Shown here: one piece after another, positions 1-60,638 of the stretch
How the letters are laid out: each line of letters begins with the position of its first letter
Position numbering within the stretch: position 1 is the first letter of the stretch
Origin: Spironucleus salmonicida
Lineage: Eukaryota
Length of the DNA stretch: 64,000 nt
Direction of reading: 5' to 3'
Assembly: GCF_000497125.1 (NCBI RefSeq)
Contig: NC_090602.1
Location: 1,054,001 to 1,118,000, forward strand
Position numbers and translations under genes: made by a program
Notes under the pieces: generated by a model
The model's database searches: none
Told to the model about the DNA's origin: nothing
The model's input: only the letters and a program-made list of their open reading frames with translations

Positions 1-242
<242 letters not shown>

Positions 243-543
243 AAGCATAGATCTACTATATACAAAGTCACCAATAAATGCAAATTTAATATTTATGACT
301 ATTTTCAAAAAATTAATCCAAAAATAATGCTGTAAAATTTATGCAATAGGAATATTAAAGGTTATTACTCGCATTTAATGCGGGCTTGATCTCCAATCTA
401 CTGGAAGTTGGACGCATGTCAAAATTAAAAGAAGAACCTCAAAAATGAGGTTTCAATTAATTAAACTAAGAGTTATTAGCTACTCGGAGTTATCCCTAAG
501 CTAAAAATCAACTAGGCGATAAGTAATAAATAAAAAAGATACT

Positions 544-768
544 TGAAAGCGAGCCATGCGCGACGTCCGCTGATGCTAGTCTGGGAACCGCCCACTGCCA
601 GCCTAATCTTGCTCCGTTTCCGGCCTGGGACGTACAGCTCGTTTAACCACCAGAGGTCTGGTCCTTCCGGTCCATTCCGCTGGGGACAACAGGCGAACCT
701 AGGGCATCGGGGCGCCGCGCATAGCTGAGGGAGCGGGGCCGCAGATTTGAAGTAGAGGGCCGCGGTGC
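544..768 (-). ncRNA. SRP (7SL) RNA, array copy 1
   Basis: Reverse complement of 27243-27467; contains helix-8 motif CCCAGGCCGGAAACGGAGCAAG and is followed by a T-run. Ends approximate. Confidence 0.88.
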
Positions 769-927
769 AAATTGGAATATAATAATATAATACTGCAAAA
801 GGGGATCTTAGAAAACTTCACTTCCAAACTTCAATATATTGCTTCGATTTAGTCCCACGAACGATGAAGAAACCGATTCATCTGGATTAAGATATATCAT
901 GGCACCTGCTTATTTTGGTTTCGCCAA

Positions 928-1347
928 ATGTAACTATCGCCTCGCGTGTATCAGGAGCCCCCAAAGTCTCCGAGATCCCTCAAAGCGCTTACCAGCCAGC
1001 CCTCCTTCGCTCGAGTAGTTGAAAGTCCCCTACCGAAGCTGAAGACGATACGCTTCATGTACAAGCGGTCGCGGAACCACGTTGCCTCGCCGCGCAAGAC
1101 CGAGGCTAGCCTGATGACGTCTAGCCTTCTATCGGATATAGAGAAGAAACCTTCGTTCCACAACTATTACGAGAATGACTTCCACCAAACCGACATCTTG
1201 GATAACTTCAGCTTCAAGATCGAGAAGAAATTGTTTTCGAACCGCGCTACCTATTTCAGCGACCTGAAGAAAAAGGAGGTACAGGTGCGGAAAATGCTCG
1301 AGAAGCAGGAGCGCCAGCACAAGGGCCTGCCCGAAACTGATGATTGA
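928..1347 (+). CDS. Hypothetical protein, 139 aa (MQLSPRVYQEPPKSPRS...), array copy
   Basis: ATG at 928 in frame with the 946 ORF when TAA=Gln; TGA at 1345; related to 21051-21476. Confidence 0.75.
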
Positions 1348-1350
1348 ATG

Positions 1351-2231
<881 letters not shown>

Positions 2232-2532
2232 AAGCATAGATCTACTATATACAAAGTCACCAATAAATGCAAATTTAATATTTATGACTATTTTCAAAAA
2301 ATTAATCCAAAAATAATGCTGTAAAATTTATGCAATAGGAATATTAAAGGTTATTACTCGCATTTAATGCGGGCTTGATCTCCAATCTACTGGAAGTTGG
2401 ACGCATGTCAAAATTAAAAGAAGAACCTCAAAAATGAGGTTTCAATTAATTAAACTAAGAGTTATTAGCTACTCGGAGTTATCCCTAAGCTAAAAATCAA
2501 CTAGGCGATAAGTAATAAATAAAAAAGATACT

Positions 2533-2757
2533 TGAAAGCGAGCCATGCGCGACGTCCGCTGATGCTAGTCTGGGAACCGCCCACTGCCAGCCTAATCTTG
2601 CTCCGTTTCCGGCCTGGGACGTACAGCTCGTTTAACCACCAGAGGTCTGGTCCTTCCGGTCCATTCCGCTGGGGACAACAGGCGAACCTAGGGCATCGGG
2701 GCGCCGCGCATAGCTGAGGGAGCGGGGCCGCAGATTTGAAGTAGAGGGCCGCGGTGC
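2533..2757 (-). ncRNA. SRP (7SL) RNA, array copy 2
   Basis: Same sequence as 544-768. Confidence 0.88.
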
Positions 2758-2916
2758 AAATTGGAATATAATAATATAATACTGCAAAAGGGGATCTTAG
2801 AAAACTTCACTTCCAAACTTCAATATATTGCTTCGATTTAGTCCCACGAACGATGAAGAAACCGATTCATCTGGATTAAGATATATCATGGCACCTGCTT
2901 ATTTTGGTTTCGCCAA

Positions 2917-3336
2917 ATGTAACTATCGCCTCGCGTGTATCAGGAGCCCCCAAAGTCTCCGAGATCCCTCAAAGCGCTTACCAGCCAGCCCTCCTTCGCT
3001 CGAGTAGTTGAAAGTCCCCTACCGAAGCTGAAGACGATACGCTTCATGTACAAGCGGTCGCGGAACCACGTTGCCTCGCCGCGCAAGACCGAGGCTAGCC
3101 TGATGACGTCTAGCCTTCTATCGGATATAGAGAAGAAACCTTCGTTCCACAACTATTACGAGAATGACTTCCACCAAACCGACATCTTGGATAACTTCAG
3201 CTTCAAGATCGAGAAGAAATTGTTTTCGAACCGCGCTACCTATTTCAGCGACCTGAAGAAAAAGGAGGTACAGGTGCGGAAAATGCTCGAGAAGCAGGAG
3301 CGCCAGCACAAGGGCCTGCCCGAAACTGATGATTGA
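2917..3336 (+). CDS. Hypothetical protein, array copy
   Basis: Same sequence as 928-1347. Confidence 0.75.
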
Positions 3337-3339
3337 ATG

Positions 3340-4220
<881 letters not shown>

Positions 4221-4521
4221 AAGCATAGATCTACTATATACAAAGTCACCAATAAATGCAAATTTAATATTTATGACTATTTTCAAAAAATTAATCCAAA
4301 AATAATGCTGTAAAATTTATGCAATAGGAATATTAAAGGTTATTACTCGCATTTAATGCGGGCTTGATCTCCAATCTACTGGAAGTTGGACGCATGTCAA
4401 AATTAAAAGAAGAACCTCAAAAATGAGGTTTCAATTAATTAAACTAAGAGTTATTAGCTACTCGGAGTTATCCCTAAGCTAAAAATCAACTAGGCGATAA
4501 GTAATAAATAAAAAAGATACT

Positions 4522-4746
4522 TGAAAGCGAGCCATGCGCGACGTCCGCTGATGCTAGTCTGGGAACCGCCCACTGCCAGCCTAATCTTGCTCCGTTTCCG
4601 GCCTGGGACGTACAGCTCGTTTAACCACCAGAGGTCTGGTCCTTCCGGTCCATTCCGCTGGGGACAACAGGCGAACCTAGGGCATCGGGGCGCCGCGCAT
4701 AGCTGAGGGAGCGGGGCCGCAGATTTGAAGTAGAGGGCCGCGGTGC
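4522..4746 (-). ncRNA. SRP (7SL) RNA, array copy 3
   Basis: Same sequence as 544-768. Confidence 0.88.
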
Positions 4747-4905
4747 AAATTGGAATATAATAATATAATACTGCAAAAGGGGATCTTAGAAAACTTCACT
4801 TCCAAACTTCAATATATTGCTTCGATTTAGTCCCACGAACGATGAAGAAACCGATTCATCTGGATTAAGATATATCATGGCACCTGCTTATTTTGGTTTC
4901 GCCAA

Positions 4906-5325
4906 ATGTAACTATCGCCTCGCGTGTATCAGGAGCCCCCAAAGTCTCCGAGATCCCTCAAAGCGCTTACCAGCCAGCCCTCCTTCGCTCGAGTAGTTGA
5001 AAGTCCCCTACCGAAGCTGAAGACGATACGCTTCATGTACAAGCGGTCGCGGAACCACGTTGCCTCGCCGCGCAAGACCGAGGCTAGCCTGATGACGTCT
5101 AGCCTTCTATCGGATATAGAGAAGAAACCTTCGTTCCACAACTATTACGAGAATGACTTCCACCAAACCGACATCTTGGATAACTTCAGCTTCAAGATCG
5201 AGAAGAAATTGTTTTCGAACCGCGCTACCTATTTCAGCGACCTGAAGAAAAAGGAGGTACAGGTGCGGAAAATGCTCGAGAAGCAGGAGCGCCAGCACAA
5301 GGGCCTGCCCGAAACTGATGATTGA
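4906..5325 (+). CDS. Hypothetical protein, array copy
   Basis: Same sequence as 928-1347. Confidence 0.75.
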
Positions 5326-5328
5326 ATG

Positions 5329-6209
<881 letters not shown>

Positions 6210-6510
6210 AAGCATAGATCTACTATATACAAAGTCACCAATAAATGCAAATTTAATATTTATGACTATTTTCAAAAAATTAATCCAAAAATAATGCTGT
6301 AAAATTTATGCAATAGGAATATTAAAGGTTATTACTCGCATTTAATGCGGGCTTGATCTCCAATCTACTGGAAGTTGGACGCATGTCAAAATTAAAAGAA
6401 GAACCTCAAAAATGAGGTTTCAATTAATTAAACTAAGAGTTATTAGCTACTCGGAGTTATCCCTAAGCTAAAAATCAACTAGGCGATAAGTAATAAATAA
6501 AAAAGATACT

Positions 6511-6735
6511 TGAAAGCGAGCCATGCGCGACGTCCGCTGATGCTAGTCTGGGAACCGCCCACTGCCAGCCTAATCTTGCTCCGTTTCCGGCCTGGGACGT
6601 ACAGCTCGTTTAACCACCAGAGGTCTGGTCCTTCCGGTCCATTCCGCTGGGGACAACAGGCGAACCTAGGGCATCGGGGCGCCGCGCATAGCTGAGGGAG
6701 CGGGGCCGCAGATTTGAAGTAGAGGGCCGCGGTGC
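6511..6735 (-). ncRNA. SRP (7SL) RNA, array copy 4 (terminal copy)
   Basis: Same sequence as 544-768; the array ends ~18 bp upstream of it. Confidence 0.88.
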
Positions 6736-6783
6736 AAATTGGAATATAATAATGTAAATATCAAATTTGCTTTAAAATTAATA

Positions 6784-8700
6784 TCAGACAATGGCCTCAT
6801 TTTTAGACTCTTTTTCTCTTTAAAGGCCTAGCTGATCCATTTCAGTTCTCAAAAGCGGCGGCTTGATAAAAGCTAATAAAAACAAGCAGACGCTCTAAAA
6901 CATCGTATTGAATAATTGTCCATCTCTATAATTATAATCATACATAGCGCCTGTAATTGCACCGCTAATAATTCTGCCTATTGAGTTTCCAATTTAAAAA
7001 ACACCCATAACCTGGCCTCTATTCTAAGGAACTGTATACATACTAGCTAGCTATAAAAAAATTGAGTCGCAAAAAATAGATGCCAGTCCAGTCATTAACA
7101 TTGTAAGGAACATAAGAGGCTAAGGAACTGGCGGATTTGGTAAAAAGTAAATAAGTGACTCAGCAATTGATATATACTAAGACAATACTATTGATCTATA
7201 TTCTCCTAGAAATTTAATAAGGTATTTAGAAATAAAAGCTGAAAATAATGCTCCTAAAGTAATAGATACTAATTAAACTGTAGCTGAATAACCTTTTGCT
7301 TAATTAGCATTGGTAAAACCGTATGTTCTAGTTGTATAAAAAGGAGCACCGGTTCTGGAATTTATAGCACCTGTTAAACTCAAGAAATAACTTATAAAAA
7401 GTAATATTATGTTGATATCTTTGATCATCTAGAAACAAACTCTATACATTGGGGTAGTATTCATTTATTTAACATTCTTGATAGATAACCCTAGAGCCGC
7501 TGTCTTCCGCATAGTCAAAACACGCTGATTACTCTCCTTTAAAAATACTGATACAAAGACCAAACATCCTGCGAATATTACAGTCGCAGTGATATGACTA
7601 TCTCTAAAGCTGAGTGTTGATCTGGCTTAAACTTCATCAAAAGGGAGCGATGGGTTTCTAGTGTCATATTTTGCGGCATTGCTAAAGTACAATTAGATAG
7701 CAGACTACATAACAGAGCCTAATTATGCAGAAACATTTACCAAAATCATAACAAATCCTCTTATCTTTGGCGTAGCTAAATCAGATACTATAGTGACTGC
7801 TAATGGAACAATAATAGCAACTGATCCTTATGAGGCCCTAATAATAGTAATGATGAGAATGATATTTTGACTATTTGTTAAATTAACAGTAACCAAAAAT
7901 ATACCAGTTGTAATGGTGTAGACAACTACCATTATGAGTGCAATTGGTTTTCTTCCAATTTTATCTGATAACCATAGCCAAAAAACGGAGAAAAATAGTT
8001 ATGCTAGGTTGAAATAAGTTGTCTAACTAGTTACTTATGAAGCTGTAGCGCCTATAACTTGGATATAATAAGAAATATTCGTAAAAGATACTTATAATCC
8101 ACACGATGCAACAAAAACCATTACATAAACTACCCATAATCTATTTTGATAAAATTTTGGTTCTTATTTCAAATCATTATTTATATCTTATATATCTAAA
8201 CATTGAACACCTTCTATATTAATAAAAATCTTGACCTCATCTTCAGATGCCTAATAATCTAGAACGAATTCATCGCTATTAAAGTCCAATTTTGGCATAT
8301 ATTCAACTTTTTATATTGCAGTAAAAATTTTAATCATTTAATGGATAAATTCAAAGTAGTCATCAAATGGAATTGATGATGAAATAGTAGAATCTATCTT
8401 AGATGCAAAAGTATTAATAGAGATAATATTTTATATAAATATTGATTTCTACGCGCTTGTTATTTACAAATCAAATACTTAAAATATGCTAATATCTAAC
8501 GGTGAGCTAATAACTGGTATTTGTATTTATGATATCAGTTTTTCTAGAATATCTGATGTTAATAAAATATCAGCTATATATTTATCTTAGCTTACGTTCA
8601 CATCTAATATTTACCCTAATTAATGAATATAACTCCATACGCGATATTAATTCCTTGCGTTGATCACTGACCTCGAGTTTAATTTAAGAGAATGCTACAT
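6784..8700 (-). CDS. MFS transporter with long N-terminal extension, 638 aa
   Basis: Table-6 ORF MQHSLKLNSR...; MFS motif A WLSDKIGRKP; many hydrophobic segments; paralogue at 58722-60638. Confidence 0.9.
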
Positions 8701-9192
8701 TTTTAAATATAATTCAATTTTTATATAATAGATATTAAATATATGTTGTAAAAAGATAACAATAAATCATGTATATATGCTAATTTTCATTAATGTTTAC
8801 GACAAGCTCCATAGTTTTTTCAAAGAAACGGGTACGAGCTATTATTAAACATTGAGTTCATTAATATAATGATAATACTAAGTATTACTAAGAATTTATA
8901 TATGTTCCAACAAGATAATTTTATGAAAATGTATATTTAACTTAATCTTAGAGGTACTAAGTGATTTTTATTACTTTCTCTAACTTTTATTTATATTTTT
9001 GTCATATTATAGTATCTTGTTATTATTCTTATTAGCAAGTATCTAAATTTAGGATAAATAGTTTAGATAGAACTAAAATTAGAATAGAGATTGCGTATTA
9101 CAATTCTTTCTAAGATAATTCAAATTTTAATACTAGTTTTTATAAATTACTAACATTTATTATGTAAAAATAAATAAGCAAAATTTAGAAAA

Positions 9193-10335
9193 TCATTACT
9201 TAGCTGATTTTTTTCTGCCTCTTTTTAATGGCAATACTGATGTTGTTGGTTCTTAAAAAGTTAGGTTAAATTCAGATTCATATTATTCTTTTTCATAAGA
9301 TTTTATAGAATCCGTTATTTAATATTTTATTCCTTGCTAATGCATATCCTTAACTTAATCACTTCCTACAAATAACATTTTAAACAGATAAAAGGGGCCT
9401 ATTCCAAATATATACTAATCTATGATAACACTAGAAGCATTAAACTAACATTTCTCTTCATGCATAACTTATTTTGCCATTATATTTATTTAATCTTCAT
9501 TAACTTAACAAACAATATACGGCTTATGATCCTGTTCTTATATAACTGTTGCTCCATTGCATAAAGATAATGCGTTGACTTTATTATGAAAGCTGGATTA
9601 TCTACATATACTTAAACTATTTGAAAGTGAAGTTTAACCCATTATGTCTGGAGCATAAATGGTACCGTTTTCGTTATAAAATAAAGCAGGACTATTACGA
9701 GACTCACGTGAATAAAATGTTAAATCTTAATTTAATTTTATTGTTTTACCAGAAATCGAAGAAACAAATATAAATTCATTATTAGATGATATTTACGTAA
9801 TTTAACCTATCCCTAACGGTAACTATGCAAATATTGAAAAATCTTAATTTATAAACTTTAGTACTCCTAATGGATTTCCTGTGATGAAATAATTTTTATA
9901 TGATCCAATTGCTGTACATTTGGAACAAAGTTCACTAACTTATAAATTCAAAGAGATACTACAGATATATACGGTTCCCTGTGAAGATAGATAAATTATA
10001 TGTGAATCTGTTGAATCTGCTTAAATTATTTAGGAGTCAGGATATATAATAGTTTCATATTACACTTAAAGTGAGTTCACATCTACAAAAATTATTTTAT
10101 CCTTTGTAAATATATAAACTAAATTTTATGAATGTTTTTAAATCAAATAAGGATTTTCAACCGCAACAGCTTAGAATATATCGTAGTTTACTAAAGATGA
10201 TCGTTTTTTCGCCGATGTAGCGTGCGCTAATTATGAAGATAAAGGAGATAGCAAATCATTTATGTTTTAAGCTATATTTGATAATGATAAGACTGTTTAT
10301 TTACAATCTGAATGAGTAACAGTTAATTACGTCAT
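9193..10335 (-). CDS. Hypothetical protein, beta-rich (possibly divergent WD40-like), basic C-terminus PLKRGRKKSAK
   Basis: 380-codon table-6 ORF; the fold is a guess from beta-strand-like patterning. Confidence 0.7.
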
Positions 10336-10389
10336 GTTTACTATTCGAATATAATTATATAATAATAAATTAATATTCCGCAATTTCAA

Positions 10390-11373
10390 ATGTACAATAG
10401 ATATTAGTTTACAGAGCAGATTTTATCATAGACACCATCTGCTACAACTCAGGCTGCAGTAAACATTCAGACAAAAAATTATGTACTCATCAAAAAGTAT
10501 GCAATTACTGTTGAAAACCCTCATAACTTCATCGCATCAACGCAGTTGCTTAAGCGCCTAAACCATCAGAATCTTATCCAGTATGAGAATTTCTATGAAG
10601 ATGCTAGTCATACATATATAGTCTCTGAGTTATCGTCATAGGACAATCTACTCGAAAAGATCCTCTCAATGAAGTACTATTCTGAGGACGACTGCCGTGG
10701 ATTTATTACATAAATTATCGAGGGATTAGCATATTTACATTCCAATAACATAGCAAATTTGAATCTGAAGCCTGAAAATCTGCTCACTATTAACAATCAG
10801 GTCAAGCTTTGTGATTATGCTCTGTATGAACTTTTTCCTCTGGAGAATCTTTTATATGCTCCTGGATTCGTTTCAAAAGATTAACTAATTAACAGGATCA
10901 CTGATTTTTAGCCTGATATATTTGCGGTTGGCGTTATTTCAACATTGTTATTAACCGGAAATTTACCATTTAAAGAGGAAGAAAACTACATATAGTCATA
11001 TCTTGACCAGACATTAAACAATAGCTTTGAGATTAATGCCAAAACTATGTCAACTAGAGCTGTAGACTTCGTTACTAGCTGTTTTAGCGGCTAGTCTACT
11101 GTTTTTGATCTCCTTAATGATCCATGGCTCACAAATGAAGCTCCTGTAATTCCTCTTTAAACAACTTAAATTTAGCTTAAAAGGTACGTGGCAAAGCTAA
11201 AATTGAGAGACGGTAGCGGAGTTAACGCAAGTAAATTGGTCCAGCTAGCAAGAAAAATTGGAGAAATTGAAGATGATATTGAAGTGGAAGGTGAGGAGAT
11301 CGATGCTGAACTGGACGAAGTGGATGAAAACCAAACTGCTGTAACTCAAATGTTGGAGGATGAGGTGAATTGA
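10390..11373 (+). CDS. CAMK-like protein kinase domain, probable pseudokinase
   Basis: GLAYLHSNNIANLNLKPENLL, VKLCDYAL, DIFAVGVI...GNLPF; acidic tail. Confidence 0.88.
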
Positions 11374-11688
11374 TCGGATTTATATTAACTGAAATAGATT
11401 AAAATAAACTAAGATAGATAAGTAAAAAGGTAGTAAATAATAATAGATAAAGATTTAGTATAAAAATTTGGAAACTATAAAATCAAGTAAACGAACTCGA
11501 TTAATAACTTTTTGCTTAATGGAGGGTAAATTTCGGTAACCATTGTTCTAGACTCATTAATATTGACAAAACGTCACTAATGAGGCATATTAAACTAGAG
11601 TTTACAAAATTGACTACTATGTAAAGCATTAAAGCGGAATGAATAATTAACAATAATATTAATTATGTATAATAAGTACAAGTATAAA

Positions 11689-11967
11689 TCACTAAGTGCT
11701 ATTTTATTAAGATATAAGTTAAACAGTGTTAAATTATTCTTTAGCTACTTCCATAAACTAATCATCAAAAGAATCTATTGTTGACTAAATATTAGAAAAT
11801 TTCAGCATCAAATCAACTAAATTTTTATAACTTTACTTAATATTAATATATAGTGATCTACAGTCGTCGTCTGCTGAACTAGAGCTGATATACGAGCTAC
11901 CTTAACTAACAGTGAAGGAATCTTTTATAGATTCAGGTGCCGAATATTCGTATTAAGCTAAGTCCAT
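11689..11967 (-). CDS. Hypothetical protein, 92 aa
   Basis: Table-6 ORF MDLAQYEYSAPES... ending TAGTGA. Confidence 0.55.
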
Positions 11968-12262
11968 TTTTATTTTTATAATAACTATTAATTAACTAAA
12001 ATAATCAATTAATATTTTACTAACAGTAAAATTAAATGTTGAATGATAATATACTTGGAAGACTAGTATTCTGTAAAAGAAACTAAATTTTACATATTTT
12101 ATAAATTTAGGAAAACTGTATTATATACTATATAATTCTCTTTTAAATTCTAAACTATGATTAGTATTATTATGATATTATATTAGTAATAATAAAATCA
12201 TATATATATATTAATATTATATCATTAAAAAAATATATTTATTGATATTAAATTTTGTAATT

Positions 12263-12271
12263 CCACTCCAC
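12263..12271 (+). promoter_or_regulatory. C-rich promoter-like motif CCACTCCAC
   Basis: Just upstream of the RPL30 ATG; similar motifs precede the ATGs at 12725, 13772, 16937, 17691, 23621, 33982 and 60912. Confidence 0.6.
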
Positions 12272-12278
12272 GTGTGAA

Positions 12279-12670
12279 ATGGCTGACCGCAACTAAACCG
12301 TGAGTTTTAACAACTGAGACCGGTTTGGTCTCAGAAATCTTAACTTTTACTAACAAACTAGAAGAAACAGTTAGAATCAACCTCTCTCTAATTAGGTCTC
12401 ATCATGAAATCAGGAAAGTTCACCTTAGGTGTTAACCAGGCTATGAAGTCAATCAGAGACGGATCTGCCAGCCTTATCATCATCTCCAGCAACTTGCCTC
12501 AGCTTGTTACATCTCAAATTGAGTATATGGCTATGATCTAAAAGATTTAAGTTTATAAGCAGCCTTATAACTCTCGTGATTTCGGCCTCTAGATTGGTAA
12601 AACTTTCAATGTCGGCGTTATGACTATTACTAATGCTGGTGATGCTGATCTTTCGGCTTTCCGTAACTGA
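12279..12670 (+). CDS. RPL30: 60S ribosomal protein L30 (eL30); exons 12279-12299 and 12362-12670
   Basis: Spliced product MADRNQT|KKQLESTSLQLGLIMKSGKFTLGVNQAMKSIR...IEYMAM...VMTITNAGDAD. Confidence 0.95.
12300..12361 (+). other. Spliceosomal intron, 62 nt, phase 0
   Basis: GTGAGT 5' splice site; fused branch point and acceptor ACTAACAAACTAG; removal restores the RPL30 frame. Confidence 0.93.
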
Positions 12671-12724
12671 TTAAAACTACCAAAATTATTTGTCACTTTA
12701 ATATATATTTACCACTCCTTTATA

Positions 12725-13315
12725 ATGTAGTTTCTAACTAACAACATTATACTTATACCATATCCAGGATTTTGCTTCTATCTTTCAATAGATGGTATCA
12801 GAGTATCTGAAAAAATCTATCCATAGTAGTAGTATAATAAAGTTAAGCTATGTGAAAATTACAAACTCTTTCTAGAAATCAAATAATGCTTACACCAAGT
12901 CTCTCAAAGCTAAAAGTTTTTTATTTAATCTTGTGGGTCATAATATATAACTTAATAAATATTATATACATATGTTAACCCTTAAATCACGTCTTTTAAA
13001 ATGAACAGCACTGAAATTTTAATCAATCAAGTTGAATCTCCAATTCTTCTTAAATGCATGACTAAAACATGTGTAGTTAAGGTACCATTTTCGCACTTTA
13101 ACGAAGGAAAAGCTATTTTTTCTTGTGATATTTATAAAAGTAATTTTGAATATATTCTAGTAAATAACTTCCAAATAGGAAAATTCAGTTAGGAAATAAA
13201 TGTACTATCTTCTATTATATATTAACACTGTGCAGAATTTAATTTTTAAAATATTCAAGTGTGCGATTTAATATAGAAAGGGGGTGAAATTTGGGGTATT
13301 TTAAGGGACGTTTGA
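12725..13315 (+). CDS. Hypothetical protein, ~196 aa
   Basis: Table-6 ORF including the 13001 fragment; ACCACTCC upstream. Confidence 0.55.
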
Positions 13316-13408
13316 GTTTATATGCGAGATTTGAGATGAATATAACTGTTATCCAAATTTAATTTTAAAGGTGTATGAAAATATTATATAACCAGAGATA
13401 TAATAAAA

Positions 13409-13750
13409 ATGTTAAATGATATACTATTATTCCTGAACATAGTGCTGAAAGGAATCACACGGCATACGCTGAACCAGAACGTCTTCAACGCGGTGTACAT
13501 GCTGATGGGCTGGAGCGGGCTCGCGCTCCTGCCGAAGATCGTGGTGCAGTTCGGCTGGGGGTGTCTGGGGCTCGTCGTCGCGGGCGGGCTGTGCTACAGC
13601 GTCGGCCTGGTTGCGTTCCAGGTCGAGCGCCCGAACCCTGTCAAGGGCGTGTTCTGCGCGCACGAGATCTGGCACTGCTGCGTGAGCCTCGGGGTCGTGT
13701 TGCACTACCTGAGCCTGCTGGTGTACGTGCTCCCGTACCAATAGTCGTGA
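13409..13750 (+). pseudogene. Hemolysin III / PAQR family, C-terminal half only
   Basis: YMLMGW, GGLCYSVG, HEIWH and LHY motifs present; the N-terminal TM helices are absent and upstream DNA is AT-rich and unrelated. Confidence 0.75.
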
Positions 13751-13771
13751 GATTTATAATTCACTCCACAA

Positions 13772-14497
13772 ATGAGCAAGACCATCTACCTGGTGCGCCA
13801 CGGCGAGACGGACTTCAACACGGATCCAGTTCCACGCGTACGGGGCAGAGTCGACGTCCCCCTGAACGCTCAGGGCGAGGCCCATGCCAGGCAAGCCGCG
13901 GAGTGCCTGCGGGACGTAGCGCTGGGCAGGATCTACTGCTCCGCGGTCAACCGGGCCCTCCAGACAGCAGAACTGGTGCACGAAGCCCAAAAGGGGCCGT
14001 GCGAGCTGGTCGTAGACGAGCTTGTGATCGACATCTCCTGGGGTGACTGGGAGGGCAAGACCTACCTGGAGGCCTTCGGGGACGAGCAGGCCAGTACCTT
14101 CTTCAACGCCCCAGAGAAGCTGGTGATCCCCAACGGCGAGAGCTTCTACCAGGTGATGGACCGCTTGCGGCGCTTCCTGGTGCGCTTCTACCAGTCGGAC
14201 GAGCAGGTGTGCTGCATTGTGTCGCACGGTGCAGTATTTAATCTGCTGGGCTGCCTGATCACGGAGGCCCCCGTGAGAAAGTTCTGGAGCTTCTACATGG
14301 GAGGCTGCGGGGTGAGCAAGATAATTATGACGGGCATCGACAACTTCACCATCGGGTTCTGGAACTCTATGACGCATATTAATTACTCACTTATCATTAT
14401 TTAAATGCTAATTAATATTTTTCTCATTCATTACTTAAATTACGCTTTATGGCCACAATTTGATTGGAGCTGTAGGTGCATCAAACTCATCTAATGA
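13772..14497 (+). CDS. Histidine phosphatase (phosphoglycerate mutase-like); recognisable domain ends ~14380
   Basis: IYLVRHGET, WGDWEG, GES, VSHG and WNSMTH motifs; first in-frame TGA is at 14495, inside the opposite gene. Confidence 0.9.
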
Positions 14498-14896
14498 TAA
14501 CATAATTTAATGAGAAGATAGTCTATTAATATGTGCTAAACTTAGAAGGTGATATGATAACTCCTCTCGTTATAATAAAGATCTAAACGTTTAAATAAAG
14601 ACAATTATTGCATCAAATGTTTAACCAGGACTAATAACTGAAGGAAATTCATTAACAAATCCATTCCATAGTATCATAAAATCTATATCTTTATCTGATA
14701 TGTGTGAGGTTTAGACTGAGTTTTTAAGTACTGTAGGATGCTATGATATTTTTTCATATACAATAGGAGGGACATGGTGAAATTAATTAGGTAATGGCTA
14801 ATGAGTAATTTCAGAATATAATTATTGATCTGACACTAGTAGTGGGGCATGTGTGCATCCATCTGGCAAGACTAATGGAAATGGTTTCAGTTCCAT
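14387..14896 (-). CDS. Stand-alone VEFS-box (SUZ12-like) protein candidate, 169 aa
   Basis: LYSEITHQPL...ISDKDIDFMILWNGFV...AIIVFIQTF...HLLSLAHINRLS matches the VEFS-box pattern by eye. Confidence 0.6.
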
Positions 14897-14946
14897 TATG
14901 GAATATTAATTAATATTATATAAATATTATCAACATATTAAAAGTT

Positions 14947-15150
14947 ATGGGAAGTGCATGCGCAAAAAAATCAGGTCCTTTATATGAGAAGACAACAGTT
15001 TATAACACAATCGAAAAGAATAAGAATCTCACTGTATAAAAACCTACAGTCACAATGGAATGTTCTAAAATTATGAATTATTCAACTAGCGATAAAACTT
15101 AAAAAGGAGAGTCAAATTCTCTAGATTTGACTGTACAAGATTTATAGTGA
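14947..15150 (+). CDS. Small protein, 67 aa, with dual-acylation-like N-terminus MGSACAKK
   Basis: Table-6 ORF ending TAGTGA; Gly2 and Cys5. Confidence 0.6.
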
Positions 15151-15512
15151 TAATTAAATAGAATATTAACGATTATGATTTATGGTATTTAGAATTCATC
15201 TTGATTTTACTAACTATGCAAACGTTTATTCTACTTTTTTAGAATAATATAAAGGATATGATGAGATATTCTTAATATTATATCCGAATTAGAGTAATTA
15301 TGAGTTTAACGAACTTACTGGTATTATTTTATTTAATAATAACTGTCATAAATTTCAGCGATGTTTCTGTAGTATTGATAAACCTCTATAGTATCATTAA
15401 AATATCTATTTATTCCGATCACATTTACAGTTTTTAATGCTATTAATAGAAGTAAATAATCGATCACATATATATTAATTAGAAGTAATGTATTTTTTAC
15501 CTTTATCCGAAA

Positions 15513-16061
15513 ATGCCTAGAGCTCCATTAGATTAAAATACAGCTCTACAAGCTATAGCCTTTACATTATAATAGTTATCTACCTATAGTGTAGATGAAC
15601 TGCTTAAAGATCATCACCTTTTGGAGCAATAAGTGAAGCGGCTAAATATGTCTTGGAAGCAAGCTGCTGAAGTTATGGGAGTATCTAAATCCAGACTTTA
15701 TCACTGGTTCCGAGAGACATTTAGTAGAAAACTCAGATAACAGCTGACTAAAGAAGACTTCAGAAAAATAAAAAGAGAAGTTTAGCAACAAATGAGCACA
15801 GGCGAAAAACCGATACTTAGCTAAATCAAATCTTCACTATCCTAAGAATACGACTCTTATGTAGTGAAAGTTGCATTCCAAAATGCTAAAATTGGCTGCC
15901 GTATCCAAAATCTTCCGCTATTGGCATTGCCTAGTTTTAACGTGGAATCTGACTCTAAAGTCAACTCGGCAAGAACGATACTTAATAACTCCCAGACTGA
16001 CGCGCAGTGCGAATTTAGCAATTCTGAGGTCTTTTACTTTTAGAGCTTCATTATGGAATGA
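15513..16061 (+). CDS. Hypothetical HTH/Myb-like protein
   Basis: WKQAAEVMGVSKSRLYHWFRETF helix-turn-helix pattern. Confidence 0.7.
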
Positions 16062-24848: not shown

Positions 24849-25499
24849 TTAATCTATGAAGTATATAAATAATATTGTATAATAAATATTTATTTGATCG
24901 AAAGATTAACTAATTTTAGTGTATTATATTTTATATAATTATAATGTTTAATATATTGCGTATTTCTATCAAGAAAGTGTGTATAAAGTTTCACATAATT
25001 TTTTTAATAATATAAATTTTTTTGCTGAAATTTTCTTAGACTGCCATTAATTAGGTGAATACAATATCTAAATAACATATTCCTCTTATAAAATAAAGTA
25101 TTCATTTATCTTAAATTAAATATTTTATCAGAGATTTTATTAATTTGGGTAAGATTATTAATTACTACATTACAATAACATGCTATGTTTTATTTTAATA
25201 TAAATTAATGCTTTTAAACTATCTATATAATCTATTTAAAAAATATCTATCAGGTTATTATTAAGATTAAAAAAATAAAACAAAAATAATAGTTTTATCA
25301 TTGTAAAAAAAATATATTTATTAGTCCTAAGACATAATTACTGGCCTGCAACATTAATTAAACTAGAGAAATAAATAATTAAAACACAGAATTAAAAATT
25401 TAGAATATAAGTATTAAATTACTTATTAATAATATAAGTTTAATTAATAATAATAGTATTATATATTAATATTTAAGTTTTATATGTTTTCATTCCTCA

Positions 25500-26660
<1,161 letters not shown>

Positions 26661-26663
26661 CAT

Positions 26664-27083
26664 TCAATCATCAGTTTCGGGCAGGCCCTTGTGCTGGCGC
26701 TCCTGCTTCTCGAGCATTTTCCGCACCTGTACCTCCTTTTTCTTCAGGTCGCTGAAATAGGTAGCGCGGTTCGAAAACAATTTCTTCTCGATCTTGAAGC
26801 TGAAGTTATCCAAGATGTCGGTTTGGTGGAAGTCATTCTCGTAATAGTTGTGGAACGAAGGTTTCTTCTCTATATCCGATAGAAGGCTAGACGTCATCAG
26901 GCTAGCCTCGGTCTTGCGCGGCGAGGCAACGTGGTTCCGCGGCCGCTTGTACATGAAGCGTATCGTCTTCAGCTTCGGTAGGGGACTTTCAACTACTCGA
27001 GCGAAGGAGGGCTGGCTGGTAAGCGCTTTGAGGGATCTCGGAGACTTTGGGGGCTCCTGATACACGCGAGGCGATAGTTACAT
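26664..27083 (-). CDS. Hypothetical protein, source copy of the array ORF (Pro instead of Ser in KR[S/P]RN)
   Basis: Reverse complement of 928-1347. Confidence 0.75.
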
Positions 27084-27242
27084 TTGGCGAAACCAAAATA
27101 AGCAGGTGCCATGATATATCTTAATCCAGATGAATCGGTTTCTTCATCGTTCGTGGGACTAAATCGAAGCAATATATTGAAGTTTGGAAGTGAAGTTTTC
27201 TAAGATCCCCTTTTGCAGTATTATATTATTATATTCCAATTT

Positions 27243-27467
27243 GCACCGCGGCCCTCTACTTCAAATCTGCGGCCCCGCTCCCTCAGCTATGCGCGGCGCC
27301 CCGATGCCCTAGGTTCGCCTGTTGTCCCCAGCGGAATGGACCGGAAGGACCAGACCTCTGGTGGTTAAACGAGCTGTACGTCCCAGGCCGGAAACGGAGC
27401 AAGATTAGGCTGGCAGTGGGCGGTTCCCAGACTAGCATCAGCGGACGTCGCGCATGGCTCGCTTTCA
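27243..27467 (+). ncRNA. SRP (7SL) RNA
   Basis: Helix 8 CCCAGGCCGGAAACGGAGCAAG at 27382-27403; helix 6 with GGAA tetraloop at 27343-27346; helix-5 pairing of 27285-27298 with 27446-27459. Ends approximate. Confidence 0.9.
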
Positions 27468-27473
27468 AGTATC

Positions 27474-27478
27474 TTTTT
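27474..27478 (+). terminator. Putative Pol III oligo-T terminator
   Basis: TTTTT just after the SRP RNA; the array copies have T6. Confidence 0.55.
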
Positions 27479-58478: not shown

Positions 58479-58721
58479 TTTTTCTGATTATTTTTGTGGG
58501 CAGGTTACGTATAATAATAGATATTGCCAAATTTTTGGGATGGTAATTCTTACTGTGATATGAAAATCATTAAGAATCCGGACTTTGCTTGTAAGTATTT
58601 TTGAGTAAATATGATTAGAACTACATATGAATAGTTTTAGCGGTTTATAGAAACTACTAAGCGAGCTGAAATTAAATATTCTAATTCATAATTTTCAATA
58701 TATAAATAAATTTTCTTAAGA

Positions 58722-60638
58722 ATGCAAGACTCACTAAAGTTGAACAGAGACGCTGTTAAAAAATCTAGAAATCAATTTAGAGTCTGGTAATATTGCTCAA
58801 ATCTAGGTATTATATTGAATGTTAAAATACCTGATGAAAAGTACTTGCCTAGTTTACTAGTCAAATCGGACTTTTTACTTCAATTAATTAATCATTTGTA
58901 GATAGAAATACCAGAGGAGATTTAGGAAGCTTGTATTTTTGAATGCTTTGATATGAATATTACAGATGAAGAGAAGAAGAGGTTTTGCCTAAACTGCATT
59001 GCAATTAATAATTTATCACATAAAATAGATGCTACTATAAGTAAAGATATCCCATTTACAGACTATTTTCAGTTTATATCTCATTGGATAACTGTATTTA
59101 CTGCAATCTAAAAAGTAGAGCATATGCCAGCTATGGATTTTAATGATGATATGTTCATAAGTTAATACGAGCCTTCAAACGAAGAGATAAAGTTAATGAT
59201 TAATTTAGAAGGGGTTTGCTGCTTGGATGTCAAGGATATAAATGCGGAATTAGGCAGAGAACCCAGATTTTATGAAAATAACTTATGGGTTGTTTATACA
59301 TTTTTACTAGTATCAGCATGTAGTCTTTCACTTTCTATGACTAATATAAGTTACTATATTTAAATTTTAGGGGCTACTGCAACTTAAGTAGCATCATAGA
59401 CTACTTTTTTCAATCTTGTATAATTATTTTCTTCAGTATTTTGGCTATGGTTATCCGATAAAATTGGAAGAAAACCCATTGCCGTTATTATGGGAATTAT
59501 TTATACGATCACCTCTGGATTATTTTTAATAACATTAAATATGACTAATAATTAGAATATTATCAGAACCATTACTATAATTAGAGCATCTTAAGGATCT
59601 GTAGCTATCATTGTGCCATTAGCAGTTGTTATTGTTGCTGATAGAGCAGCTCCAAAAATACGTGGATTTGTTATGGTGTTAGTTAATGTTAGTAGTGTTA
59701 TTGGTGCTGTTCTTTCGTCAGCTCTTTAAATATATTTCAGTAGTGCTTAAAAATATAATACATCAGATAGATAACTTACTTTTTCAGAAATATAAAGAAG
59801 ATCAATGCTTGGATTTTAAGATAGTAATATTGCAGCTACAGTACTTTTTGGAGTGTGTCTATTAATTATAATTATCTTTTTGAAAGAAAGCAACTAAAAT
59901 ATTATAACAATAAAGTGTGCAAGAAAATTAGGCTTAACGATAAAAGATAGCAAATCATTTAAAACTATTCCTATCCATAAGGTATTCGTCACTATGATAA
60001 AAGACTATAATCTAGATTTAATATTTTTGAGCTATTTCCTTAGTTTAACTGGTTCTACTAATTCTAGAACAGGTGCACCTTATTATACAACAAGATCTTA
60101 TGACTTTACTAATCCTAACGAAGCAAAAGGCTATATTTCTATTGTACTTTTAGTAACTCTTACCCTTGCTTCTATTATATCTGCATTACTATCAAAGTAT
60201 TTCATTAAATACTTTGGAGAGTTCAAATCAATAATTTTTTCATAATTTATCTCGATTGTAGAATCAATTATTTTATTTCTTCCAAATCCACCAATAAATC
60301 CAGCACTGTTATATTTAACATAAACTTTGACAGGAATTTCTATTATATTTTGTGATTCTTTATTCTTTTAGCTTGTAAGTATGTATACTGTTCCTTAAAA
60401 TAGAGGTTAAATCCTTGGGATTTTTTAAATAGGAAACTCGTTAGGCAGAGTTACGAGTGGAGCTATTACCGGTATTATGCAAGGATTTAACTACAGAGAC
60501 TCATAGATTTTTAATACGCTGTTCTAATCCGGCTGCCTTATCCTTCTTTCTCTTATTAAACCTCCAATTTAAAGAACATAGATGGACAAAGAATACCGTA
60601 AACAAGAAACTCATATGTAAAATGATGCAAGAGTTTGA
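58722..60638 (+). CDS. MFS transporter with long N-terminal extension, 638 aa
   Basis: MQDSLKLNRD...; WLSDKIGRKP; collinear with 6784-8700. Confidence 0.9.

Follow-up and report, generated by a model that had tools for sequence, protein, structure and literature searches.

We analysed a 64,000-nucleotide stretch of Spironucleus salmonicida DNA (contig NC_090602.1, positions 1,054,001 to 1,118,000 of the forward strand), referred to below as the window, in whose own coordinates all positions are given. The subject is a small gene, P0001, that lies on the minus strand at 14387..14896, and which meets a convergent His_Phos_1 gene tail to tail. P0001 encodes a protein of 169 amino acids that, together with three relatives, resembles the VEFS box of SUZ12, a component of Polycomb repressive complex 2 (PRC2).

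The P0001 reading frame and its relatives

The P0001 open reading frame (ORF) runs from an ATG at 14896-14894 to a TGA at 14389-14387 and is translated under NCBI table 6, with 12 in-frame TAA/TAG codons read as glutamine. As the initial annotation had pointed out, the frame is open only under this table and could not be seen in the ORF track supplied with it; under table 11 we found no ORF at 14387..14896. All three peptide strings quoted in that annotation are present in the translation. An in-frame TGA lies 12 codons 5' of the ATG, so the frame cannot extend further and the N-terminus of the protein is fixed.

The reading of TAA and TAG as glutamine agrees with the rest of the window, where Pfam domains continue unbroken through ORFs that carry up to 48 such codons. 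The domains that cross TAA or TAG codons are those of a protein kinase, an MFS transporter, an SRP54-type GTPase (SRP receptor), Oxidored_FMN, peptidase M20, papain, melibiase and an EF-Tu-like protein. The two longest ORFs contain 111 and 139 of these codons and show no significant Pfam domain. Since the ORFs of the window are long (up to 1691 aa) and unbroken, the genome looks intron-poor; the spacers are very short, and the GC content of the window is 33%. Together with the code and with DNA runs whose contigs add up to 12-13 million letters, these features suit a small hexamitid diplomonad genome and would suit a ciliate poorly. Rfam (at the gathering threshold) and ARAGORN returned no match anywhere in the window.

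With TGA as the sole stop codon, long chance frames are frequent. We counted 150 ATG..TGA ORFs of at least 120 aa and 87 of at least 169 aa in the window, and 33 of the 150 lie wholly within Pfam-confirmed genes, in the wrong frame. An open frame of 169 aa alone is no more than chance would give. These counts are what would be expected if the P0001 frame had arisen by chance, within an AT-rich spacer or the 3' untranslated region of the His_Phos_1 gene, and owed its length merely to TGA being the only stop. As both the length of the frame and its own Pfam match (described below) are at chance level, the observation gains its significance solely through the relatives of P0001.

The relatives were sought by an exhaustive phmmer search with P0001 against 1.84 billion cluster representatives, followed by a profile search. 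We observed that P0003 (193 aa; E 8.2e-19, 37% identity across residues 4-153) and P0004 (313 aa; E 3.3e-13) can be aligned with P0001 from end to end in the minus-strand frame, which is hard to reconcile with a chance ORF. The profile search added P0005 (345 aa), and the family, at P0001 and three relatives among 1.84 billion representatives, is thus a very small one. P0003 to P0005 come from Logan and JGI records and have an amino-acid composition of G+C-rich type; their N-terminal extensions are merely low-complexity and Arg-rich. A further phmmer match, P0002 (1341 aa, E 4e-25), was rejected as a repeat artefact, as a 35-residue match to P0001 residues 19-53 recurs in it 17 times in tandem.

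Thirty-four alignment columns are invariant among P0001, P0003, P0004 and P0005. All four proteins share an N-terminal FPLxLPDG motif, a central D-F-x-x-L-W, the motifs Q-T-F-x-A, H-L and R-L-S-S, and a W-P-x-S that belongs to the tail. In P0001, the FPLxLPDG motif occupies residues 6-13 (14858..14881, minus strand; invariant F6, P7, L10, P11, D12 and G13). It is followed by the VEFS-box-like region (approximately residues 33-142; 14471..14800, minus strand), in which a PL(R)P segment precedes a predicted helical bundle carrying D-F-x-x-L-W-N, and by the conserved family tail (residues 148-169).

Other searches for relatives gave nothing further. P0001 was absent from the predicted-protein collections searched, and a word-based search with P0001 alone yielded nothing at E<=1 among 25 candidates. 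ESM Atlas gave no usable match with P0003. Metagenome-contig scans with P0004 and with the family alignment produced 114 and 190 pattern matches, respectively, and no confirmed locus, so the relatives stand without genomic context. The family profile found no longer forms of 605-2000 aa at E<=0.01 among 7428 candidates (weak evidence, with lengths of 549-604 aa lying outside this search).

We also evaluated codon usage. The P0001 frame scored +0.063 log-odds per codon, just below the range of 15 confirmed genes (0.064-0.231). A plus-strand ORF at 14494..15150, which overlaps P0001, scored a similar +0.055 per codon, and codon usage alone cannot choose between the two. This similarity would again suit a chance frame, as would the finding that a single contig crosses both the His_Phos_1 gene and the P0001 ORF in three of the four runs described next.

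These four runs (X5-X8) were taken to be RNA-like because their cover was patchy and shaped like genes, with a loose poly(A) end, and their RNA status is a guess. They contained 61-66% of the words of a 2-kb stretch, as compared to 98-99% for DNA runs, and one RNA-like contig had a loose end of 11 A residues 13 nt past the stop of the upstream neighbouring gene. RNA-like contigs lay over the P0001 ORF in all four runs, with cover ending ~65-80 nt upstream of the ATG, and the gene is transcribed. In the three runs with a single contig, this contig extended from the His_Phos_1 gene to 14887, 14961 or 14975. Run X7 contained two contigs, one over His_Phos_1 (13780-14511, depth 221) and one over P0001 (14578-14882, depth 9.5), which fits two convergent transcripts of unequal abundance. 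No run showed cover across 15005-15298, and past this gap the cover restarts at ~15520, save for one low-depth X7 contig from 15420. The plus-strand ORF, which would need a transcript reaching 15150, is therefore not spanned by one; the contigs that cover P0001 reach 14975 at most.

Upstream of P0001 there is a TATA-like, promoter-like element, TTATATAAT, at 14915..14923 on the minus strand (-27..-19 from the ATG), of a kind common to other genes of the window. The words TTATAT, TATATA, ATATAA and TATAAT occur at -27 to -24. ATTATA or TTATAT was present in 11 of 17 gene upstream regions of 70 nt, as against 11-12% of 4000 random 70-nt windows. Together, these observations have led us to regard P0001 as a real gene with near certainty, and a chance frame as extremely improbable.

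Likeness to the VEFS box of SUZ12

The Pfam model of the VEFS box, PF09733 (gathering cutoff, 23 bits), gave its best match to P0003 (E 1.3e-4, 22.3 bits, profile positions 21-120 of 137). P0004 followed (E 0.034, 14.5 bits), and then P0001 itself (12.9 bits, residues 66-124 on profile positions 63-124 of 137). VEFS-Box was the sole Pfam match in each of these three proteins, and the FPLxLPDG motif of P0001 lies outside the matched region.

When P0001 alone was compared with the PDB using phmmer, there were no matches at E<=10. The profile of P0001, P0003 and P0004 was searched against 177,635 distinct PDB sequences, and here the top 10 matches were all SUZ12 (E 2e-6 to 4e-5). The best of them reached 31 bits over ~105 collinear residues, with profile positions 53-158 on human SUZ12 residues ~560-677, that is, on the VEFS box (~560-685 in the human protein; PDB 5hyn, 4w2r and 6c23). 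With a four-sequence profile, SUZ12 accounted for all 10 matches at E<=0.01. At the family-invariant positions L-W, Q, A, F and H-L, human SUZ12 has the same residues (in MKLWN, DNQ, HAC, LFV and LHL, respectively). The family thus has a significant, collinear profile match to the VEFS region of bona fide SUZ12, and shares with it the PL(R)P segment, the M-x-L-W-N motif and the L-H-L helix. Lower rows of that search, with TALE and Hax3 proteins, were discarded as repeat artefacts, as not a single stretch of them passed on its own.

We further examined a template-free AlphaFold2 model of P0001. Foldseek placed SUZ12 chains at ranks 1-8 (E 0.13-0.75), and VIA-align of Foldseek's list placed SUZ12 at ranks 1-11 (Z 6.1-7.5), with unrelated proteins from Z 4.5. 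A Foldseek-independent VIA-align comparison with 48,161 representative chains again put SUZ12 at ranks 1-2 (Z 7.5 and 7.2; the next protein at 5.1). In this predicted model the helical bundle superposes on SUZ12, with residues 48-142 on SUZ12 590-685 (91 residues, root-mean-square deviation 4.5 A). A model of P0003 likewise ranked SUZ12 first and second (Z 7.4 and 7.1).

A number of observations weigh against the reading of P0001 as a VEFS-box gene. The match of P0001 to PF09733 has an E-value of only 0.1; among the 33 wrong-frame ORFs used as decoys, five had some Pfam match at E<=0.1 (the best at 0.0032), so that P0001 alone, with its VEFS score within the decoy range, would count as noise. 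All four proteins fall below the gathering cutoff, P0003 narrowly, and P0005 has no Pfam match at E<=0.1. The structural models are of low confidence, with a mean predicted local distance difference test score (pLDDT) of 58 for P0001 (63-82 in the helices at 68-139) and 52 for P0003, and Foldseek gave no match at E<=0.001. Z-scores below 8 are common for helical models (as the tool itself warns), and in the P0003 comparison unrelated helical proteins at Z 6.9 were tied with SUZ12 at 7.4. No relative from Giardia surfaced in the exhaustive phmmer search of P0001. Finally, the RNA-like contigs carry no strand, and the assignment of the transcript to the minus strand therefore rests on homology.

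The Pfam and structural weaknesses are those that would be seen if P0001 were a real, conserved gene of unrelated origin, whose VEFS likeness came from a common helical arrangement and a few shared residues. Against such an origin, the Pfam, PDB-profile and structure searches all rank SUZ12 first with nothing else near, since beneath the SUZ12 entries the PDB profile search held merely the repeat artefacts, and the structural margin of P0001 is 2.4 Z units. The collinearity over ~105 residues, the identities at the invariant positions and the lack of any other Pfam match in three of the four proteins argue in the same direction. We consider an unrelated origin improbable, and it is very probable that the family is a true homologue of the VEFS box.

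The SUZ12-like reading given in the initial annotation is thus borne out at the level of the family, by both profile and structural similarity. It had proposed to check that reading with the Pfam VEFS-Box model and with a structure prediction searched by Foldseek, and each check bore it out in part: VEFS-Box was the only domain matched in three of the four proteins, with none at 23 bits, and SUZ12 headed the Foldseek list, at E-values above 0.001 and with a low-confidence model. Its description of the protein as having no zinc finger also agrees with what we found, as P0001 is 169 aa long with an in-frame stop upstream, has a single Cys and shows no Pfam domain besides VEFS-Box.

P0001 differs from SUZ12 in several respects. 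The N-terminal modules of canonical SUZ12/Su(z)12 (ZnB, WDB1, C2, the C2H2 zinc finger and WDB2) are all missing, and the VEFS-like region stands alone. Human SUZ12 has an acidic stretch before the conserved Trp, while the corresponding stretch of P0001 is not acidic. The FPLxLPDG motif is the family's own. In size, P0001 equals the VEFS-only SUZ12 fragments present in crystals of minimal PRC2 (129-191 residues; 5hyn, 4w2r and 7td5).

The overlapping His_Phos_1 gene and other features of the window

The convergent His_Phos_1 gene (13772..14497, plus strand; Pfam E 1e-41) overlaps P0001 tail to tail by 111 nt (14387..14497, both strands) when both frames are read under table 6. The His_Phos_1 frame has a TAA at 14402-14404, where a gene in the standard code would end and where the sequence ceases to be G+C-rich, and a TGA at 14495-14497. 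When TAA is read as glutamine, the frame continues for 31 further codons of AT-rich sequence to this first TGA, and the X7 contig of His_Phos_1 ends at 14511, 14 nt past it. Within the overlap, the plus frame (14405-14497) has a codon score of -0.445 per codon, and the P0001 family conserves the tail encoded on the minus strand (W-P-x-S..Q..M). The C-terminal extension of His_Phos_1 may have been forced by the stop-codon reassignment.

The His_Phos_1 gene lies in a G+C-rich island (13431-14380; 59-61% GC, as compared to 33% for the window), which holds this gene complete and a fragment of an HlyIII gene. The island could reflect expression-linked codon bias or a recent acquisition. The HlyIII fragment, in an ORF at 13409-13750, corresponds only to the C-terminal half of an HlyIII/PAQR protein (Pfam profile positions 120-224 of 224). 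At 13431, where the island starts, all four RNA-like runs join 246-255 nt of sequence that is found nowhere in the window; the contig with this junction has a depth ~10-20 times that of the colinear contig, and the junction lacks an AG. This could be explained by a paralogue located elsewhere, by a remote exon or trans-splicing, or by a break in the assembly.

On the other side of P0001, an ORF at 15060-16061 (plus strand) shows weak helix-turn-helix matches in its C-terminal part (HTH_3, E 2.9e-4, below the cutoff). Its true start is probably a Met near 15510, since RNA-like cover is seen only at ~15420-16036.

The window begins with a 1989-bp unit repeated head to tail at 100% identity (1 to ~6757). 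Each unit contains a deoxyhypusine synthase ORF (e.g. 1351..2181, minus strand; Pfam DS, E 1e-99). An inverted copy of 1704 bp, also 100% identical, is present at 25775-27478, inside a full-length deoxyhypusine synthase ORF (25185..26660). These copies are likewise G+C-rich (50-53%), and the repeat may represent a true array of genes or have arisen during assembly. Tandem Repeats Finder, applied to 1-16000 with a period limit of 500, returned no rows. Two paralogous MFS transporter genes, at 6784-8700 (minus strand) and 58611-60638 (plus strand), lie 50 kb apart and have similar N-terminal extensions outside the MFS domain.

A possible reduced PRC2 or repurposed VEFS box

PRC2 is held to date from the last eukaryotic common ancestor.

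Two surveys (PMC9018016, PMC10638273) describe the VEFS box as the region through which SUZ12 binds E(z)/EZH; it stabilises the interaction of EZH with EED and is required for catalysis. By analogy, P0001 would be a divergent VEFS box with a short FPLxLPDG motif and a short conserved tail, acting as a small helical adaptor that wraps onto an E(z)-type SET-domain lysine methyltransferase. The wrap would keep the enzyme in an active conformation, as the VEFS box of SUZ12 does. Such a protein would be a natural minimal SUZ12, without the N-terminal lobe that in animals recruits RBBP and accessory factors. The SUZ12 chains of 129-191 residues in the crystals indicate that a minimal complex needs no more of SUZ12 than its VEFS fragment. 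Binding to such a partner and a role in histone methylation are, for P0001, only inferred from this analogy. Overall, the best explanation of the data is a real VEFS-only gene encoding a SUZ12-like adaptor of an E(z)-type SET enzyme, to which we assign a probability of about one half.

VEFS-only proteins have been catalogued before, and P0001 joins an already described category. Sharaf et al. (2022; PMC9018016) report Su(z)12-like proteins of the VEFS-only kind in 75 of 283 species. The examples in Table S8 include three from Carpediemonas membranifera in which, as in P0001, the VEFS box is the only recognisable domain, and such proteins are described from lineages (Metamonada included) without a detected canonical Su(z)12. 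The table lists none for the diplomonads (S. salmonicida, three Giardia and Trepomonas), unlike what we find for P0001, and the likeness to the catalogued proteins is by description only. The novelty lies in finding such a protein in a genome of diplomonad type, for which the survey has no entry, in its absence from the predicted-protein collections searched, in the very small size of its family and in its own N-terminal motif.

Precedents for very divergent proteins in the role of SUZ12, missed by standard searches, come from the divergent or short Su(z)12 subunits of ciliate and fungal PRC2 (Tetrahymena and Neurospora) and from MES-3 and Bnd1. A Suz12-like protein of Paramecium has no VEFS box at all (PMC9018016). 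Tetrahymena, Neurospora and the like have a demonstrated E(z) enzyme, unlike the host of P0001, where none is known; neither E(z) nor EED has a published report in the presumed lineage of P0001.

The published surveys weigh against a role of P0001 in PRC2. Sharaf et al. (2022) list no E(z) in any of the 20 Metamonada surveyed, and no E(z), ESC, Su(z)12 or VEFS protein in S. salmonicida, the three Giardia or Trepomonas. The only surveyed metamonad with ESC is Carpediemonas membranifera, and the only ones with VEFS-Box proteins are Streblomastix (two) and Carpediemonas (three, VEFS only). In the survey of de Potter et al. (2023; PMC10638273), EZH, EED and SUZ12 are each reported in one of 11 Metamonada. 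The S. salmonicida negative of PMC9018016 is weak, however, since the data set behind it is given a BUSCO C of 0.4%, a low value that we suspect to come from a genetic-code problem.

Our own searches added little on the question of a partner. A scan of 28 large ORFs of the window found no SET domain. Literature searches found nothing on VEFS in diplomonads, and nothing relevant on PRC2 in diplomonads, SUZ12 in Giardia or Polycomb in Spironucleus. For VEFS in Carpediemonas they returned only the preprint of Sharaf et al., and for a Spironucleus histone methyltransferase only work on arginine methylation, which is not relevant here.

Since the surveys report no diplomonad E(z), the mechanism is evenly split. 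If P0001 is a true VEFS homologue, an E(z)-like enzyme that has escaped detection, in a reduced PRC2, has about the same chance of being its partner as some other partner or role. The second alternative is that P0001, after the loss of PRC2, no longer works with E(z) and has been retained as an adaptor of some other partner, for example another SET enzyme or an unrelated complex. That the surveys list no E(z) or ESC in diplomonads would be expected in this case. PMC9018016 also describes VEFS-Box proteins other than Su(z)12 in species with and without E(z), for which other complexes have been suggested, and the invariant FPLxLPDG motif outside the VEFS match could belong to such a function. 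Against this, no VEFS box has a known alternative partner, EZH, EED and SUZ12 co-occur strongly across eukaryotes (PMC10638273), and the S. salmonicida negative comes from the poor data set mentioned above. We hold a repurposed VEFS box to be a tentative explanation, somewhat less probable than the SUZ12-like adaptor.

The SUZ12-like adaptor reading has a more specific form. Hexamitid diplomonads may have a cryptic, drastically reduced PRC2-like module, made up of P0001 and an unrecognised E(z)-derived SET enzyme; the enzyme would have been missed since it has diverged too far, or since the standard code mistranslates too much of it. This form we consider rather unlikely. If it were true, PRC2 would have been reported absent from diplomonads only through a failure to detect it, and P0001 would be the smallest natural SUZ12.

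P0001 is invisible under the standard code, and the surveyed data set of S. salmonicida, the best-known diplomonad using table 6, had a BUSCO completeness of 0.4%; absences reported for such organisms therefore deserve to be rechecked under the right code. A conserved, expressed VEFS-only gene could mean either that part of the Polycomb machinery survives unrecognised in this lineage, or that the VEFS box has a role outside PRC2. Either meaning would sharpen our view of the ways in which these reduced parasites lost or rewired chromatin silencing.

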